From: a virus
Length of the DNA: 12,991 nucleotides
Virus genome (UHGV): UHGV-0043381
Reading direction: 5' to 3' (one strand)
A program made the position numbers and the translations under genes. The notes beneath the pieces are model-generated. The model did no database searches, was not told the origin of the DNA, and worked only from the letters and a program-made list of their open reading frames with translations. Below, piece after piece: positions 635-12,941 of the stretch (within the stretch, counting starts at the first letter, position 1; each line of letters opens with the position of its first letter).

Positions 635-2316
635 TATGCAAGCCTCACAATATAGTTAAATGCGATATTTTTGACGGTGTTTTCCGCGTTACCAGCAGCG
701 TTAACGGTGATGGTGTGTCCATGTGAGCCAATCGCAACCGAGTGCGTATGAGCACCAATATCCGTACCGATTTCGGTAAGGTAAACCCCGTTTTTGTTTC
801 GCTTACGTGGCATGCTGGCCACTGGCTTTCCGTAGACGGATGCCCCTTTAATGGGGATCACCCGGAACAGCCCATGTTTTTTCGAGCGTTCATACACAAT
901 GGTCGGGTCAATCCCGCCAGTATCCCAGCAGATACGGGATATCGACATTTCTGCACCATTCCGGCGGGTATAGGTTTTATTGATGGCCTCATCCACACGC
1001 AGCAGCGTCTGTTCATCGTCGTGGCGGCCCATAATAATCTGCCGGTCAATCAGCCAGCTTTCCTCACCCGGCCCCCATCCCCATACGCGCATTTCGTAGC
1101 GGTCCAGCTGGGAGTCGATACCGGCGGTCAGGTAAGCCACACGGTCAGGAACGGGCGCTGAATAATGCTCTTTCCGCTCCGCCATCACCTCAGCATCCGG
1201 ACGTTCGCCAATTTTCGCTTCCCATGTCTCACCGAGCGTGGTGTTCACGAAGGTTTTACGTTTTCCCGTATCCCCTTTCGTCTTCATCCAGTCTTTGACA
1301 ATCTGCACCCAGGTGGTGAACGGGCTGTACGCCGTCCAGATGTGAAAGGTCACACTGTCCGGCGGCTCAATCTCTTCACCGGATGACGAAAACCAGAGAA
1401 TGCCATCACGGGTCCAGATCCCGGTCTTTTCGCAGATATAACGGGCATCAGTAAAGTCCAGCTCCTGCTGGCGGATGACGCAGGCATTATGCTCGCAGAG
1501 ATAAAACACGCTGGAGGGGTCATCCGGCGTCCATTTGAGGCCAAACGGCGCCTCTTTGTCGCCAAATTTAAGATACTGCTCCTCCCCGCAGTGCGGGCAG
1601 GCAACATGAAAACGCATAAAATGCGGGGATTCACTGGCTGCACGCTCAATCTGGCAGGTGCCTCTCACTTTGGGCGTGGAGCCACGGATGGACTTTGGCC
1701 AGACCGAGCCTTCAATACGTTTGTCGCCAAGGAACGTCGGAGAGCCTTCCTGTTCAATATCCTCATCAAAGGCAGCAAGTTCATCATAACCCGCCACATC
1801 CACCGACTTTTCACGGTAGTTTTTTGCCGCTTTACCGCCCAGGCACCAGAAGCCACGACCATTGGAAAAACGCTTCATGGTGAGCGTGTTATCCCGGTGC
1901 TTTTTGCCATACCACGGAGCCAGCGCCAGCAGCGACGGAATATCGCGGATGGTCGGCTCAACGTGGGTTTTCATAAAGTTCTCGGCATCACCATCCGTCG
2001 GCAACCAGATAAGGGTGTTGCGCTGCTTATGCTCTATAAAGTAGGCATAAACACCCAGCAGCATTTTGGAATAACCGACACGGGCAGACTTCACCACATT
2101 CACCTCACGGATGTAGTCGCTGCCCATCGCATTCATGATGGCCCGCTGAAAGGGCAGTGTTTCCCAGCGCCCTTCCTGGTATGCGGATTCTTTTGGGAGA
2201 TAGTAATTGGCATCCGCCCATTCAACGGCGGTCTGTGGCTCCGGCCTGAACAGTGAGCGAAGCCCGGCGCGGACAAAATGCCGCAGCCTGTTAACCTGAC
2301 TGTTCGATATATTCAC
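634..2316 (-). pseudogene. A: Terminase large subunit gpA, C-terminally truncated (about 519 lambda-like codons) and fused in frame to about 41 unrelated codons, probably the 3' end of a side tail fiber gene
   Basis: Translation [56 protein letters not shown]... follows lambda gpA (641 aa in lambda) through ...[11 protein letters not shown], then diverges to [41 protein letters not shown] before the stop; joint near nt 759. Walker-A-like KSARVGYSK retained. GTG start at 2316 overlaps the nu1 3' end as in lambda. The frame ends exactly where tfa starts. Confidence 0.85.
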
Positions 2317-3928: not shown

Positions 3929-4033
3929 ACCATAACGTCCGGTTTCTTCTACCCCTGCACCGGACTGGCTGACATGAAGAGCAACCCCGCGTTCAGTTGA
4001 CGCGTTAATAACCCGGTGTGCATCGTTTTTGAT

Positions 4034-4098
4034 TATTCCCGCACACTCACGCAGAAGGAATTCCCCGTCAGGCTACGGTCATGGTTAATGCGGGAATA
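4034..4098. repeat. Perfect 10-bp inverted repeat pair (tattcccgca ... tgcgggaata) flanking a 45-bp spacer, in the convergent gap between ybcV and rha
   Basis: Read directly: 4034-4043 and 4089-4098 are exact reverse complements; the spacer contains gaattc. No adjoining T-run in terminator orientation on either strand. Confidence 0.4.
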
Positions 4099-6863: not shown

Positions 6864-7946
6864 ATGAAAAAATTAACAGTGGCAATTTCTGCTGTAGCTG
6901 CATCAGTACTGATGGCGATGTCTGCTCAGGCAGCTGAAATTTATAATAAAGACAGTAACAAGCTGGATCTGTACGGGAAAGTTAATGCTAAGCACTACTT
7001 CTCCTCTAATGATGCAGATGATGGTGATACTACTTATGCCCGTCTTGGCTTCAAAGGTGAAACCCAAATCAACGATCAACTGACTGGTTTCGGTCAGTGG
7101 GAATATGAATTCAAAGGCAACCGCGCTGAATCTCAAGGTTCCTCCAAAGACAAAACCCGTCTTGCATTTGCAGGCCTGAAATTCGGTGACTACGGCTCAA
7201 TCGATTACGGCCGTAACTACGGTGTAGCATACGACATCGGTGCGTGGACTGACGTTCTGCCAGAATTCGGTGGCGATACCTGGACCCAAACAGATGTATT
7301 CATGACTGGTCGCACCACAGGTGTTGCAACTTATCGTAACAACGACTTCTTTGGTCTGGTTGATGGCCTGAACTTTGCAGCTCAGTATCAGGGCAAAAAT
7401 GACCGAAATGAAGTAACTGAAGCTAATGGCGATGGTTTCGGTTTCTCAACTACTTATGAGTATGAAGGATTCGGCGTGGGTGCAACCTATGCTAAATCTG
7501 ATCGCACTAATAATCAGGTTATCTACGGTAACAACGGTCTGAATGCTTCTGGTCAAAATGCTGAAGTATGGGCAGCTGGTCTGAAATATGATGCGAACAA
7601 CATCTATCTGGCCACCACCTATTCTGAAACCCAGAACATGACTGTTTTTGGTAATAACCATATTGCCAACAAAGCACAAAACTTCGAAGCTGTTGCACAA
7701 TATCAGTTCGACTTCGGCCTGCGTCCATCCGTTGCTTACCTGCATTCTAAAGGAAAAGACTTGGGTGTTTGGGGTGATCAGGACCTGGTTGAATATGTTG
7801 ATGTAGGTGCAACCTATTACTTCAACAAAAATATGTCCACTTTTGTTGACTACAAAATCAACCTGATTGATAAGAGCGATTTCACGAAAGCATCTGGCGT
7901 TGCTACCGATGATATCGTTGCTGTAGGTATGGTTTACCAGTTCTAA
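6864..7946 (+). CDS. nmpC: Outer-membrane general porin of the OmpC/OmpF family (NmpC/OmpD-type), intact, 360 aa
   Basis: Signal peptide [23 protein letters not shown] followed by [24 protein letters not shown]... and C-terminal ...VGMVYQF (terminal Phe typical of OM beta-barrels); matches my recollection of the DLP12 NmpC family. Not IS-interrupted, unlike the K-12 copy. Confidence 0.92.
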
Positions 7947-7961
7947 TTTGATTACTAAAAG

Positions 7962-8043
7962 ATATGTTGTGGGAGGCTTTGCCTCCCCAACATATAAGTG
8001 GCTCCCTCAAGCCACTTCCTTTAGAAGCACAACCTTGCTTCTA
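7962..8043. other. Cluster of three consecutive stem-loops between the nmpC stop and the Q stop
   Basis: Read directly: 7962-7995, about 15-bp stem with one bulged t (atatgttgtgggaggc / gcctccccaacatat); 7996-8017, 8-bp perfect stem (aagtggct / agccactt); 8023-8042, 6-bp stem (agaagc / gcttct). Confidence 0.5.
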
Positions 8044-8082
8044 ACTATACAAACCTTCTGTTATATATTACCCTTTATTTTT

Positions 8083-8110
8083 GGGGGCGTTTCAACGCCC
8101 CATTTTTAAT
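8083..8110 (+). terminator. Intrinsic terminator for nmpC (GC stem gggggcg/cgcccc plus T-run)
   Basis: Stem 8083-8089 / 8096-8101 with loop tttcaa, followed by atttttaat on the plus strand. A T-run also precedes the stem, but the minus-strand 3' side is A-rich, so termination is mainly plus-strand. Confidence 0.55.
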
Positions 8111-8134
8111 AACTTTTAGTAAATAATTGGCGTA

Positions 8135-8518
8135 TTAATTAGAGTTATTAACAACGATATCCATCTCTAACCGGATATCTAATGCCATTAACATCCCTTC
8201 AATTATGCCCTCAGCCTTCTGTAACCTTTTCCCGATATAACCATCAGAGCAGCAATGCTTACCTGCCAGTGACATGAATGTCATACCGACTACATAATAA
8301 TCTACTAATAAATCGTGCAAATCGCTGTTGTTCTTTTTCAGACGGGCCATGCACCCGCAAATGATCATAGCGTCATCGTCACAACATTGCGGGCGAGATT
8401 TTACTTTTGAAGTAATTAATCCCTTAAAACCGGCGGCAATGGACGACCAGGTCACATCTTCATGATTATTAGCCGCCCACGCTCCCCAACGCTCAAGAAC
8501 CATCTGAATATCACGCAT
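8135..8518 (-). CDS. Q: Late-gene antiterminator Q (phage 21/82-type, DLP12 QuuD-like), 127 aa
   Basis: [62 protein letters not shown]... matches my recollection of QuuD, with Cys-rich zinc-binding region. ATG at 8518-8516 has GGAG 7 nt upstream; the ORF-track start at 8533 is a TTG extension that I reject. Confidence 0.85.
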
Positions 8519-8603
8519 CAACTTACTCCACAAAAATCAGACCAGAACGCCAATTACAAGCAAAAATCAATAAAACAGTATTAGTTGATTGTTATCTCTG
8601 ACT

Positions 8604-8726
8604 TCATACTCCTGCTCCTGTCAGGGTTTTGGCGTAATTCCTCAGTATTCGGTAATCGGTCAAAACAGAACTGGGGAAACGATATAAGCGCAGGCGCATC
8701 CAGCGGTGGCGAAGAAGTTCTGCCAT
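8604..8726 (-). CDS. Small ORF (40 aa) between rusA and Q, in the position of DLP12 ylcG
   Basis: Hand translation of the minus strand from ATG 8726: MAELLRHRWMRLRLYRFPSSVLTDYRILRNYAKTLTGAGV, stop at 8606-8604. No convincing SD; homology not verified. Confidence 0.3.
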   Translation of the reverse strand: MAELLRHRWMRLRLYRFPSSVLTDYRILRNYAKTLTGAGV

Positions 8727-8740
8727 ATTAAACTCAAACA

Positions 8741-9103
8741 TCATTCATTCCCCATTTCGGTGATGGTCAGTTCCAGCCTCCCACCTTTGGTAACAGGCAT
8801 CTTCACAACGCGGTAATCAACGACCTGAGCATCATCCAGCCAGAAACCTGCTTTAGTGAGTGCGTCAAAAGCGGCTTTTTGCAGATTATCCAGGTCACGG
8901 CGACGGCGATCCGGCATGTGGCACTCAATGCGGATTTTCACAGGCATAGTCAGGCCGATATCCAGCATTGCGTTTTTAATGATTCGGGCGACGTTATCGC
9001 GGTATGCCTGCCCCTCTGCGCTGACGTGCGTGCGCCCGCGATTATGGCGGTAATAGCGATTATTACTCGGAGGCCAGGGTAATGTGATGCTGTAGGTATT
9101 CAC
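8741..9103 (-). CDS. rusA: Holliday junction resolvase RusA, 120 aa
   Basis: [51 protein letters not shown]...[44 protein letters not shown]... matches E. coli RusA; GTG start at 9103 preceded by aagg. Confidence 0.93.
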
Positions 9104-9132
9104 GCCTTAATAACCCCCTCTTTCAGCCAGAT
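9104..9132 (-). pseudogene. 3'-terminal remnant (about 10 codons, ...[10 protein letters not shown]-stop) of a ybcO-like nin-region gene, abutting the deletion joint
   Basis: The minus-strand frame ending at 9100 encodes ...[12 protein letters not shown], which matches my recollection of the YbcO C-terminus, and its stop overlaps the rusA start. Further upstream that frame is merely antisense to bet, so the 72-aa track ORF 9100..9318 is a chimera. Confidence 0.45.
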
Positions 9133-9666
9133 ATCATCAATGAAAACCAGCAGTTTGATGGCATGGACTTTGAGCAGGACAATGAATCCTGCACATGCCG
9201 GATTTACCGCAAAGACCGCAATCATCCGATCTGCGTTACCGAGTGGATGGATGAATGCCGCCGCGAACCATTCAAAACCCGCGAAGGCAGAGAAATCACG
9301 GGGCCGTGGCAGTCGCATCCCAAACGGATGTTACGGCATAAAGCCATGATTCAGTGTGCCCGTCTCGCCTTCGGATTTGCTGGTATCTATGACAAGGATG
9401 AAGCCGAGCGCATTGTCGAAAATACCGCATACACTGCAGAACGTCAGCCGGAACGCGACATCACTCCGGTTAACGATGAAACCATGCAGGAGATTAACAC
9501 TCTGCTGATTGCCCTGGATAAAACATGGGATGACGACTTATTGCCGCTCTGTTCCCAGATATTTCGCCGCGACATTCGCGCATCGTCAGAACTGACACAG
9601 GCCGAAGCAGTGAAAGCTCTTGGATTCCTGAAACAGAAAGCCACTGAGCAGAAGGTGGCTGCATGA
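9133..9666 (+). pseudogene. bet: Lambda Bet (Red-beta recombinase), 5'-truncated; roughly the N-terminal 85 codons missing
   Basis: From about 9133 the frame reads IINENQQFDGMDFEQDNESCTCRIYRKDRNHPICVTEWMDECRREPFKTREGREITGPW...KATEQKVAA, colinear with the C-terminal two thirds of lambda Bet (261 aa) as I recall it. Upstream of about 9130 similarity stops and the frame closes at TGA 9085-9087. No start or promoter context. Confidence 0.85.
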
Positions 9667-10343
9667 CACCGGACATTATCCTGCAGCGTACCGGAATCGA
9701 CGTGAGAGCTGTCGAACAGGGGGATGATGCGTGGCACAAATTACGGCTCGGCGTCATCACCGCTTCAGAAGTTCACAATGTGATAGCAAAACCCCGCTCC
9801 GGAAAAAAGTGGCCTGACATGAAAATGTCCTACTTCCACACCCTGCTGGCTGAGGTTTGCACCGGTGTGGCTCCGGAAGTTAATGCTAAGGCGCTGGCAT
9901 GGGGAAAACAGTACGAGAACGACGCCAGAACTCTGTTTGAATTCACTTCCGGCGTGAATGTTACTGAATCCCCGATCATCTATCGCGACGAAAGTATGCG
10001 TACCGCCTGCTCTCCCGATGGTTTATGCAGTGACGGCAATGGCCTTGAGCTGAAATGCCCGTTTACCTCCCGGGATTTCATGAAGTTCCGGCTCGGTGGT
10101 TTCGAGGCCATAAAGTCGGCTTACATGGCCCAGGTGCAGTACAGCATGTGGGTGACACGAAAAGATGCCTGGTACTTTGCCAACTATGACCCGCGTATGA
10201 AGCGTGAAGGCCTGCATTATGTCGTGGTTGAGCGGGATGAAAAGTACATGGCGAATTTTGACGAGATGGTGCCGGAGTTCATCGAAAAAATGGACGTGGC
10301 ACTGGCTGAAATTGGTTTTGTATTTGGGGAGCAATGGCGATGA
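9663..10343 (+). CDS. exo: Lambda exonuclease (Red-alpha, Exo), intact, 226 aa
   Basis: [94 protein letters not shown]... matches lambda Exo at full length; ATG overlaps the bet stop (ATGA). Confidence 0.93.
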
Positions 10344-11674: not shown

Positions 11675-11893
11675 ATGTACTTGACACTTCAGGAGTGGAA
11701 CGCTCGCCAGCGACGCCCAAGAAGCCTTGAAACAGTTCGTCGATGGGTGCGCGAATGCAGGATATTCCCTCCTCCGGTTAAGGATGGAAGAGAATATCTG
11801 TTCCACGAATCAGCGGTAAAGGTTGACTTAAATCGACCAGTAACAGGTAGCCTTTTGAAGAGGATCAGAAATGGGAAGAAGGCGAAGTCATGA
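11675..11893 (+). CDS. xis: Excisionase Xis (lambda), 72 aa
   Basis: MYLTLQEWNARQRRPRSLETVRRWVRECRIFPPPVKDGREYLFHESAVKVDLNRPVTGSLLKRIRNGKKAKS is essentially lambda Xis; SD ggag 8 nt upstream; 3' end overlaps int as in lambda. Confidence 0.93.
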   Translation: MYLTLQEWNARQRRPRSLETVRRWVRECRIFPPPVKDGREYLFHESAVKVDLNRPVTGSLLKRIRNGKKAKS

Positions 11894-12941
11894 GCGCCGG
11901 GATTTACCCCCTAACCTTTATATAAGAAACAATGGATATTACTGCTACAGGGACCCAAGGACGGGTAAAGAGTTTGGATTAGGCCGAGACAGGCGAATCG
12001 CAATCACTGAAGCTATACAGGCCAACATTGAGTTATTTTCAGGACACAAACACAAGCCTCTGACAGCGAGAATCAACAGTGATAATTCCGTTACGTTACA
12101 TTCATGGCTTGATCGCTACGAAAAAATCCTGGCCAGCAGAGGAATCAAGCAGAAGACACTCATAAATTACATGAGCAAAATTAAAGCAATAAGGAGGGGT
12201 CTGCCTGATGCTCCACTTGAAGACATCACCACAAAAGAAATTGCGGCAATGCTCAATGGATACATAGACGAGGGCAAGGCGGCGTCAGCCAAGTTAATCA
12301 GATCAACACTGAGCGATGCATTCCGAGAGGCAATAGCTGAAGGCCATATAACAACAAACCCTGTCGCTGCCACTCGCGCAGCAAAATCAGAGGTAAGGAG
12401 ATCAAGACTTACGGCTGACGAATACCTGAAAATTTATCAAGCAGCAGAATCATCACCATGTTGGCTCAGACTTGCAATGGAACTGGCTGTTGTTACCGGG
12501 CAACGAGTTGGTGATTTATGCGAAATGAAGTGGTCTGATATCGTAGATGGATATCTTTATGTCGAGCAAAGCAAAACAGGCGTAAAAATTGCCATCCCAA
12601 CAGCATTGCATGTTGATGCCCTCGGAATATCAATGAAGGAAACACTTGATAAATGCAAAGAGATTCTTGGCGGAGAAACCATAATTGCATCTACTCGTCG
12701 CGAACCGCTTTCATCCGGCACAGTATCAAGGTATTTTATGCGCGCACGAAAAGCATCAGGTCTTTCCTTCGAAGGGGATCCGCCTACCTTTCACGAGTTG
12801 CGCAGTTTGTCTGCAAGACTCTATGAGAAGCAGATAAGCGATAAGTTTGCTCAACATCTTCTCGGGCATAAGTCGGACACCATGGCATCACAGTATCGTG
12901 ATGACAGAGGCAGGGAGTGGGACAAAATTGAAATCAAATAA
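11871..12941 (+). CDS. int: Tyrosine integrase Int (lambda), 356 aa
   Basis: MGRRRSHERRDLPPNLYIRNNGYYCYRDPRTGKEFGLGRDRRIAITEAIQANIELFSGHKHKPLTARINSDNS...HELRSLSARLYEKQISDKFAQHLLGHKSDTMASQYRDDRGREWDKIEIK matches lambda Int at full length, including the catalytic-region motifs. Confidence 0.95.
   Translation: MGRRRSHERRDLPPNLYIRNNGYYCYRDPRTGKEFGLGRDRRIAITEAIQANIELFSGHKHKPLTARINSDNSVTLHSWLDRYEKILASRGIKQKTLINYMSKIKAIRRGLPDAPLEDITTKEIAAMLNGYIDEGKAASAKLIRSTLSDAFREAIAEGHITTNPVAATRAAKSEVRRSRLTADEYLKIYQAAESSPCWLRLAMELAVVTGQRVGDLCEMKWSDIVDGYLYVEQSKTGVKIAIPTALHVDALGISMKETLDKCKEILGGETIIASTRREPLSSGTVSRYFMRARKASGLSFEGDPPTFHELRSLSARLYEKQISDKFAQHLLGHKSDTMASQYRDDRGREWDKIEIK

Follow-up and report, generated by a model that had tools for sequence, protein, structure and literature searches.

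The short open reading frame between rusA and a Q-type antiterminator gene in a decayed lambda-like prophage as a copy of ylcG, a conserved small-protein gene

The locus analysed here raises the question of whether a short open reading frame (ORF) lying between a rusA gene and a Q-type antiterminator gene is a gene, which gene it is, and what its product might do. The DNA, referred to below as the window, is a stretch of 12,991 nucleotides of the UHGV virus genome UHGV-0043381, and it is a decayed lambda-like prophage that adjoins ybhC and has a lambda-type integrase. The first-pass annotation had described, within 8534-8740, an unannotated minus-strand ORF of 40 codons that starts at 8726, is Arg- and Leu-rich and lies between rusA and Q. 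An ORF is present at this site on the minus strand and ends in the TGA at 8606..8604, both residues are frequent in its product (7 Arg and 7 Leu in 46 residues), and it is flanked, as stated, by rusA (9103..8741) on one side and by the Q gene, quuD (8518..8135), on the other. The features of the region are as follows.

9103..8741, minus strand: rusA, Holliday junction resolvase gene, 120 amino acids, the upstream cistron (PF05866, 83.4 bits; NF007305, 277 bits; RefSeq)
8744..8741, minus strand: ATGA overlap of the ylcG start codon (8744..8742) with the rusA stop codon (8743..8741), a junction of the termination-reinitiation type
8744..8604, minus strand: coding sequence assigned to ylcG, 46 codons plus the TGA stop at 8606..8604, 141 nt (ORF list, NF033498, PHROG 2705, RefSeq, K-12 b4509)
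8726..8724, minus strand: internal ATG (Met7), the start of the first-pass annotation, without a Shine-Dalgarno sequence and not conserved beyond the E. coli clade
8603..8519, minus strand: ylcG-quuD spacer, 85 nt, AT-rich, with one mismatch to K-12
8529..8526, minus strand: Shine-Dalgarno sequence GGAG of quuD, 7 nt before the quuD ATG
8518..8135, minus strand: quuD, Q-type late-gene antiterminator, 127 amino acids, the downstream cistron (PF06530, 179 bits; RefSeq)

Translation that begins with the ATG at 8726 yields MAELLRHRWMRLRLYRFPSSVLTDYRILRNYAKTLTGAGV, a peptide of 40 residues; in the ORF list, the frame is open further upstream as far as an ATG-ATG at 8744, giving 46 codons. The start at 8744 is also the one annotated in RefSeq and in K-12. 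In 41 of 44 related loci, the ylcG start codon (ATG, GTG or TTG) overlaps the stop codon of the upstream gene by 4 nt, and the members linked to ninG have a GGAGG 6-7 nt 5' of the start. Because of this recurrent overlap, and because Met7 is confined to the E. coli clade in the family alignments and is not preceded by a Shine-Dalgarno sequence, 8744 is the start that the sequence supports, and the 46-codon version replaces the 40 codons read from 8726. The part of the proposed range of 8534-8740 that lies outside the ORF, 8534..8603, belongs to the ylcG-quuD spacer (8519..8603).

As the first-pass annotation had stated, the ORF is below the threshold of the ORF track, and this length threshold is the sole reason why ylcG was missed at first. 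ORFs of 25-50 codons are plentiful in all frames here, with 38 ORFs of at least 25 amino acids overlapping 7500..9800, and an ORF of 40-46 codons is by itself unremarkable, as would be expected if it had arisen by chance in an intergenic gap with no gene. Since ORF length alone is uninformative, the case for ylcG as a gene is built on homology and on the pattern of substitution. The protein-level conservation across at least 12 Enterobacteriaceae genera described below, together with synteny and the substitution pattern, refutes a chance origin and leaves it a negligible probability.

The ORF at 8744..8604 on the minus strand is almost certainly ylcG, the same gene as orf45 of phage 82. This is a 46-residue small-protein gene of DLP12-type and other lambda-like phages and prophages of Enterobacteriaceae. 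The protein matches the NCBIfam model NF033498 (YlcG_phage_expr, 'YlcG family protein'), whose curated cutoff of 30 bits it exceeds with 75.4 (E 2.1e-21), aligning residues 4-41 to profile positions 2-39 of 41, and PHROG 2705, which is labelled 'unknown function' and is also matched by the Gifsy-1 and Klebsiella phage members, with 73.3 bits (E 1.8e-20). Every homologue in the protein database bears the precomputed label PF26818; in the local copy of Pfam-A, from which this family is probably absent, neither the window YlcG nor eight family members had a match even at E 10. The length of 46 residues is within the 43-46 or so of the family (among the 44 loci, 46 amino acids in 31, 45 in 7 and 43 in 5), and all the family invariants, W15, L18, R19, D30, Y31, R32, I33, L34 and N36, are found in the window protein. 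Its position is likewise that of the family, with the ATGA overlap with rusA upstream and quuD 85 nt downstream.

The window DNA from 8100 to 9133 is found with 100% identity in complete E. coli genomes, where RefSeq annotates the same 141-nt ORF as ylcG (WP_001393963.1) with the 4-nt overlap with rusA, and the rusA-ylcG-quuD block is matched in 4177 of 5426 complete E. coli genomes. The description of the ORF as unannotated has thus to be withdrawn, as identical DNA carries the RefSeq annotation and the curated YlcG model is passed. The gap had also been recognized as the one where DLP12-type prophages carry ylcG; the location is right, but the ORF is ylcG itself and not just an occupant of its place. 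It is an ordinary gene, already known and routinely annotated, and the ORF holds no novelty.

The remark that small proteins of the nin-Q region are poorly characterised is borne out, this being a genuine conserved gene of uncharacterised function. In the literature naming ylcG, no functional study of YlcG was found. PMC12844172 describes HusR binding at K-12 rusA and a more than 5-fold HusR-dependent induction of the rusA-ylcG mRNA in stationary phase, the two genes behaving there as one unit, and it credits the stationary-phase induction of ylcG to Hemm et al. 2008. Overexpression of ylcG from the ASKA library is connected with a glycogen-deficient phenotype in PMC2853380, which would agree with a product acting in trans. 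Also, ylcG was tested among the genes disrupted in an evolved methylotrophic strain, the passage concerned giving no ylcG-specific result, and it is listed in a gene-presence table of another paper.

The conservation check suggested by the first-pass annotation, a tblastn search with the peptide, was carried out and found it in 60 phage records with strong amino-acid conservation, including phages 82, 434, mEp237 and HK225, Gifsy-1, Gifsy-2, Enterobacter phage CobraSix and Klebsiella prophages. An absence of amino-acid conservation, which had been named as an outcome that would speak against the gene, is clearly not what was found. In a scan of one genome per species, 45 ylcG loci were detected, and these belong to Enterobacteriaceae of at least 12 genera, with two exceptions: the unclassified 'Bacterium BS0013' and a 667-bp contig labelled Actinomadura, which is probably contamination. 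An exhaustive HMMER search of 1.84 billion representatives returned only 26 clusters at 50% identity, and the profile search returned 928 clusters at 90% identity; among the best 120 of these 928, nearly all proteins are 45-46 amino acids long.

The substitutions point to the peptide as the conserved element. In divergent pairs, synonymous differences are saturated (pS 0.7-0.8) and nonsynonymous ones are not (pN 0.2-0.4), with dN/dS of 0.1-0.35, and third codon positions have twice the variation of first or second positions. In the 41 distinct sequences from 44 Enterobacteriaceae loci used for codon usage, the invariant residues are encoded by 2-6 synonymous codons, and L18, R19, G25, R32, I33 and L34 by 3-6; counting residues conserved in at least 90%, L18 has five codons, L34 six, R32 four, I33 all three and G25 three. 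All 42 distinct DNA sequences have an uninterrupted sense frame, and every other frame is open in at most 18 of the 42. Given the synonymous saturation with low dN/dS, the codon turnover at invariant residues and the openness of the sense frame only, these comparisons indicate that selection acts on the peptide and not on the DNA or RNA. Close E. coli alleles have dN/dS of 0.4-1.0, calculated on very few changes, and frameshifted ylcG variants are present in the databases, so the copies in decayed prophages, that of the window included, may be drifting.

The same data bear on the suggestion that this segment is a conserved DNA 'linker' for recombination among mosaic lambda-like genomes, in which the ORF is incidental. 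Some observations agree with it: the GenBank record of phage 434B puts the 434 x DLP12 crossover inside ylcG, between codons 34 and 39; the C-terminal tail tracks the type of Q, being KTLTGAGV with QuuD and KTLKGAAA with Q82; and ylcG, with its 141 nt, accounts for five of the nine differences from K-12 in the 969-nt block. Divergent members, in contrast, are saturated at synonymous sites while their amino acids are kept, which is the opposite of conservation at the DNA level, and the codon-level pattern, with the sense frame open in 42 of 42 sequences, contradicts a linker, making this suggestion very improbable.

The neighbourhood of ylcG is constant on the downstream side. A gene in the Q position directly follows ylcG in the 44 genome loci that could be analysed and in the 12 phage loci inspected (44/44 and 12/12). 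These Q-position genes belong to PF06530 (QuuD), PF06323 (Q82) or PF03589 (mEp237/Q21-like), classes with no BLAST similarity between them, and in two more loci this position is taken by a DUF1133 protein or by one without assignment. Of the 44 loci, 33 have a 4-nt overlap between the ylcG stop and the Q start and three a 1-nt overlap, and the remaining eight have a spacer of 5-85 nt. Like that of the window, these spacers mostly precede QuuD-class genes, and in six of the eight loci ylcG still ends in ATGA.

This arrangement could mean that the translation of ylcG is itself what matters, the ORF serving as a coupling ORF, or as a leader peptide at work within the ribosome, that brings ribosomes to Q and thereby sets the level of Q and the timing of lysis. 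Such a role would agree with the overlaps on both sides (downstream as given above, upstream in 41 of 44), with the placement of ylcG directly before the Q-position gene in every locus whatever the Q family, and with the terminal ATGA of six of the eight spacer loci, which resembles a relic of an overlapping Q start. Coupling in cis, though, requires no particular peptide, yet the YlcG peptide is under purifying selection with synonymous turnover. Also, ylcG is kept intact and conserved where Q lies 61-85 nt away and has its own Shine-Dalgarno sequence, as in the window, and in lambda there are 4-nt overlaps at the ninG-ninH and ninI-Q junctions too, so overlaps may be a general habit of the nin region and not peculiar to ylcG. 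With these observations, a coupling or leader function is unlikely.

Two particular forms of a leader were considered and rejected. An arrest or leader peptide does not agree with the distance from the DYRILxN motif (N36) to the stop codon, which varies between 7 and 14 residues across the family, whereas known arrest peptides have a fixed register. Sensing of rare Arg codons, a candidate as tRNA-Arg genes are found near Q in some phages, is made unlikely by the Arg codons of ylcG, which are mostly the common CGC.

The upstream side is more variable. In the 44 loci, the gene before ylcG encodes RusA in 15, NinG in 20 and another protein in six, with no qualifying ORF in three; the six others comprise one Dam methyltransferase (PF05869), one YbcO-like small ORF, assigned by eye and without a Pfam match, and four small unassigned ORFs. 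In phage 434, ylcG comes after an insertion of lpxR on the opposite strand and has no adjacent resolvase gene. The Pfam families of RusA and NinG are different, no BLAST similarity links the two proteins here, and every combination of upstream class and downstream class occurs. The distance between YlcG cores (residues 11-38) is 0.26-0.27 within neighbour classes against 0.29 between them, and when YlcG was examined for changes that follow the class of Q or that of the upstream gene, the differences were tiny (0.02-0.06).

These data concern the proposal that YlcG serves the Holliday junction resolvase encoded just before it, RusA here and NinG elsewhere, as an accessory subunit or regulator. 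A resolvase gene immediately precedes ylcG with a 4-nt overlap in 35 of the 44 loci, PMC12844172 treats rusA-ylcG as one operon of K-12, and a basic protein such as YlcG would suit a DNA binder. Against this are the nine loci with one of the other upstream genes (Dam, YbcO-like and small proteins) or without a qualifying ORF, the position of ylcG in phage 434, and the unrelatedness of RusA and NinG, between whose contexts the YlcG core hardly differs (0.27 versus 0.29). In addition, RusA can resolve junctions on its own, in vitro as well as in vivo. An accessory role for the resolvase is accordingly improbable. As for Q, gene order is broadly conserved in lambda-like phages, and the adjacency of ylcG and Q may therefore reflect position and not function; a functional tie of ylcG to Q is proved neither by the overlaps nor by this adjacency.

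YlcG is strongly basic (pI 10.9, net charge of about +4.6) with a GRAVY of -0.13. It has no membrane-spanning segment (about 18 or more uncharged residues), its longest uncharged stretch being the seven amino acids at residues 23-29, and a small membrane protein or holin-like peptide was discarded for want of a hydrophobic segment of spanning length. AlphaFold2 predicts a single long helix from an alignment of E. coli sequences only (pLDDT 73), and from a diverse alignment, built from database proteins, two helices at residues 3-20 and 24-44 with a break at the conserved R-x-P/R-G-S turn (pLDDT 72, pTM 0.38); across models, pLDDT is 72-73 and pTM 0.31-0.38. A two-helix shape is thus predicted with modest confidence.

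Foldseek searches of the PDB with the model returned generic helical hairpins only (E of 4.9 or higher), and a profile search of PDB sequences gave only non-significant, gapless matches to ETS domains (E 0.3-1.2). With PADLOC, three family members had no match at E up to 1, and a defence or anti-defence component was ruled out on this ground. A NinH/Fis-like helix-turn-helix was likewise rejected, hhalign against lambda NinH giving a probability of 0.15% and an E of 0.38 over five aligned columns. In all, no homology pointing to the function of YlcG was found in PHROG, PADLOC, or the PDB sequence and fold searches.

The first-pass annotation had proposed that the small protein would be cotranscribed with Q. 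This is plausible, because neither promoters nor terminators are predicted in 8519..8744 and the 85-nt spacer lacks a stable RNA structure (its folding is less stable than that of shuffles, z +1.56), and because the Q start overlaps the ylcG stop in 33 of 44 relatives. In the quuD subtype, as the sequence shows, Q is equipped with its own ribosome-binding site. Other origins of the spacer were also considered: an RNA element in the gap was rejected with no Rfam match on 7900..9400 at E up to 1 and a spacer that folds worse than shuffles, and so was a decayed 5' end of a longer Q, as tblastn aligns inside quuD only. The QuuD-class relatives of 165 amino acids have an N-terminus only about 10 residues longer.

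In this prophage, similarity to intact relatives ends at about 9133/9134, where a remnant of DUF1364 (ybcO) of about 30 nt is joined to a recT that lies on the other strand and is truncated at its N-terminus. The immunity and replication region, and with it the native early promoter, has therefore been lost by deletion just upstream of rusA. This loss has also removed one of the two HusR boxes that were reported for K-12.

Here it is proposed that ylcG would close the rightward nin operon, as its final cistron ahead of Q. As its start codon overlaps the rusA stop in the ATGA, ribosomes ending rusA would probably reinitiate on ylcG, and quuD would lie on the same transcript, translated from its own Shine-Dalgarno sequence after the 85-nt unstructured spacer; translation of ylcG by reinitiation after rusA and a transcript shared with quuD are, together, likely. 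The product could then act in trans, as a soluble, strongly basic two-helix protein with a partner common to all hosts, although this part of the proposal is tentative. The invariant residues W15, L18, R19 and D30-Y31-R32-I33-L34-x-N36 would form the surface that probably binds this partner, which may be a nucleic acid or a host machine, for example RNA polymerase or the ribosome. Such a common partner is more likely than a particular Q protein or the resolvase, because the same YlcG core is found beside Q proteins of three unrelated families and beside upstream genes of several unrelated kinds. The explanation as a whole, comprising the identity of ylcG, its expression and a trans-acting protein, is considered highly probable.

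That ylcG always lies immediately ahead of Q suggests that it functions around the switch from early to late genes. A broader and rather doubtful extension is that YlcG is a general accessory factor of this switch in lambda-like phages, acting on RNA polymerase, NusA, the ribosome or the late transcript and tuning the timing or strength of late-gene expression; a shared host target would account for the association of YlcG with three Q families that have no structural relationship. Many conserved small proteins of phages lack an assigned function, and YlcG is one of these. Because the survey finds it under protein-level selection, confined to prophages of Enterobacteriaceae and always directly before the late-gene antiterminator, of whatever family, it can reasonably be regarded as a candidate small regulator of the switch that times lysis, and one amenable to simple phage genetics.

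Among known systems, the most distant likeness is to the helix-loop-helix of ETS domains (alpha2-loop-alpha3 of PU.1/Spi-B). The match is gapless over 36-38 residues, the first helix sharing hRW and the second R-L-(K/R)-N-Y-x-K-T, with a helix spacing approximating that of the AlphaFold2 model. Unlike YlcG, ETS domains are eukaryotic, have about 85 amino acids and include a beta-sheet wing, and D30 and Y31, the most conserved residues of YlcG, are unmatched in them. The likeness is no evidence of membership and serves only as a lead to a two-helix shape that binds nucleic acid. Lambda NinH (68 amino acids) is comparable in another respect, as it is also encoded by a small-protein gene right after a resolvase gene in the nin region, but it has no detectable similarity to YlcG, and ninI lies between it and Q; by sequence comparison, NinH has a comparable position and is not a relative of YlcG.

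The members from Gifsy-1, Gifsy-2, Klebsiella and Enterobacter phages share with the window PHROG 2705, the invariant residues and the place directly before Q, and their ylcG has 141 nt as in the window, except in Gifsy-2, where it has 147 nt. They differ in being only 43-60% identical, in having ninG and not rusA upstream and a strong GGAGG before the start, and in an N-terminus two residues shorter and a tail two residues longer.

Closer to the window is orf45 of phage 82 (GenBank X92588, the rus-Q record), with a peptide 84.8% identical and the same overlap with rus. Its stop overlaps the start of a Q82-type Q (PF06323), whereas the window has the 85-nt spacer and QuuD (PF06530), and its C-terminal tail is KGAAA where that of the window is TGAGV. 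The ORF has been on record since the deposition of this phage 82 rus-Q sequence.

The closest system is the YlcG of K-12 (b4509) in DLP12, with the same rusA-ylcG-quuD order, 141-nt gene, ATGA overlap and 85-nt spacer. Over the rusA-ylcG-quuD block, the two have nine mismatches in 969 nt (99.1% identical), and the flanking genes are 99.4-99.7% identical. The window prophage differs from the K-12 DLP12 in lying by ybhC, in its lambda-type integrase and in the deletion upstream of rusA. The proteins themselves are identical in 43 of 46 residues, and the three substitutions, G16M, G25S and K35R, are at family-variable sites or are conservative.

The rusA-ylcG-quuD block of the window is cut off from its usual upstream region at a deletion junction, where similarity to intact DLP12-like prophages ends. 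The DUF1364/ybcO gene that precedes rusA is reduced to a remnant of about 30 nt, which adjoins a plus-strand RecT fragment. The features of this region are as follows.

9104..9666: region of the deletion junction, which lies near 9133/9134, with similarity to intact DLP12-like prophages ending at about 9133
9163..9666, plus strand: RecT fragment, covering profile positions 116-195 of 198 only
8985..9000: HusR box CGGGCGACGTTATCGC, about 104-119 nt inside rusA, an exact match to the K-12 box

The immunity and replication region of the prophage was lost by this deletion together with the early promoter, and rusA-ylcG-quuD is therefore without its native promoter. Two HusR boxes have been reported for rusA-ylcG of E. 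coli K-12 (PMC12844172). The second of these, CAGGTAAGAATCCCTG, is located within ybcO in K-12 and is absent from the window because of the deletion; with one box kept and the other deleted, HusR control of the window copy is uncertain.

At the other end of the gene, the ylcG stop of the window is found in an ATGA context, despite the start of quuD being 85 nt away, and the reading frame begun by this ATG is a mini-ORF of just 8 codons (MKSEITIN; 8580..8607). An overlapping Q start is present at the ylcG stop in 33 of the 44 relatives, and the ATGA is also kept in six of the eight spacer-type loci; it looks like a relic of such an overlapping start.

Differences from K-12 are concentrated in ylcG, which at 141 nt holds five of the nine found over the 969-nt rusA-ylcG-quuD block, against an expected number of about 1.3. 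Of the five nucleotide changes in ylcG (8604..8744), four are non-synonymous and result in three residue changes, all of them at family-variable or conservative sites, and other E. coli YlcG alleles (P0001) carry the same residues as the window at the positions differing from K-12. This suggests that a short patch was exchanged by recombination, or that constraint is relaxed.

Some copies elsewhere in the family may be degenerate. According to the GenBank annotation, the 434 x DLP12 crossover that gave phage 434B is placed within ylcG, at codons 34-39 (loci L003, 434B, and L011, 434; 2001..2141), and YlcG has 40 aa in wild-type phage 434 versus 46 aa in 434B. Compared with the window, the 434 alleles have a dN/dS near 1 and several Arg-to-Cys changes, for which reason they may be decaying. 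Some E. coli YlcG entries (such as the database proteins P0043 and P0058) have an internal frameshifted stretch before returning to frame, as where GVCAYIVSPVLF replaces RLRLYRFPGSV, which points to occasional degenerate copies. YlcG matches labelled Actinomadura (L033, a very short contig of 667 bp) and Bacillus (P0077 and P0180), in a family otherwise found only in Enterobacteriaceae, are probably contamination.

YlcG is rich in Arg, and tRNA-Arg genes were found shortly downstream of Q at two of the compared loci.

L005 (Enterobacter phage CobraSix), 3284..3359: tRNA-Arg gene
L006 (Gifsy-1), 3984..4062: tRNA-Arg gene

A link between these genes and the Arg-rich protein is unlikely, since the Arg codons of ylcG are mainly the common CGC.

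Two further genes of the window prophage were identified.

11871..12941, plus strand: lambda-type integrase with an arm-DNA-binding domain
6864..7946, plus strand: intact OmpC/NmpC-type porin gene (360 aa), just downstream of quuD and on the opposite strand

In the closest genome (L014), the prophage adjoins the host gene ybhC, where the lambda attachment site is located. The porin gene is intact in the window, whereas the corresponding nmpC is broken by IS5 in both K-12 and phage 434B.
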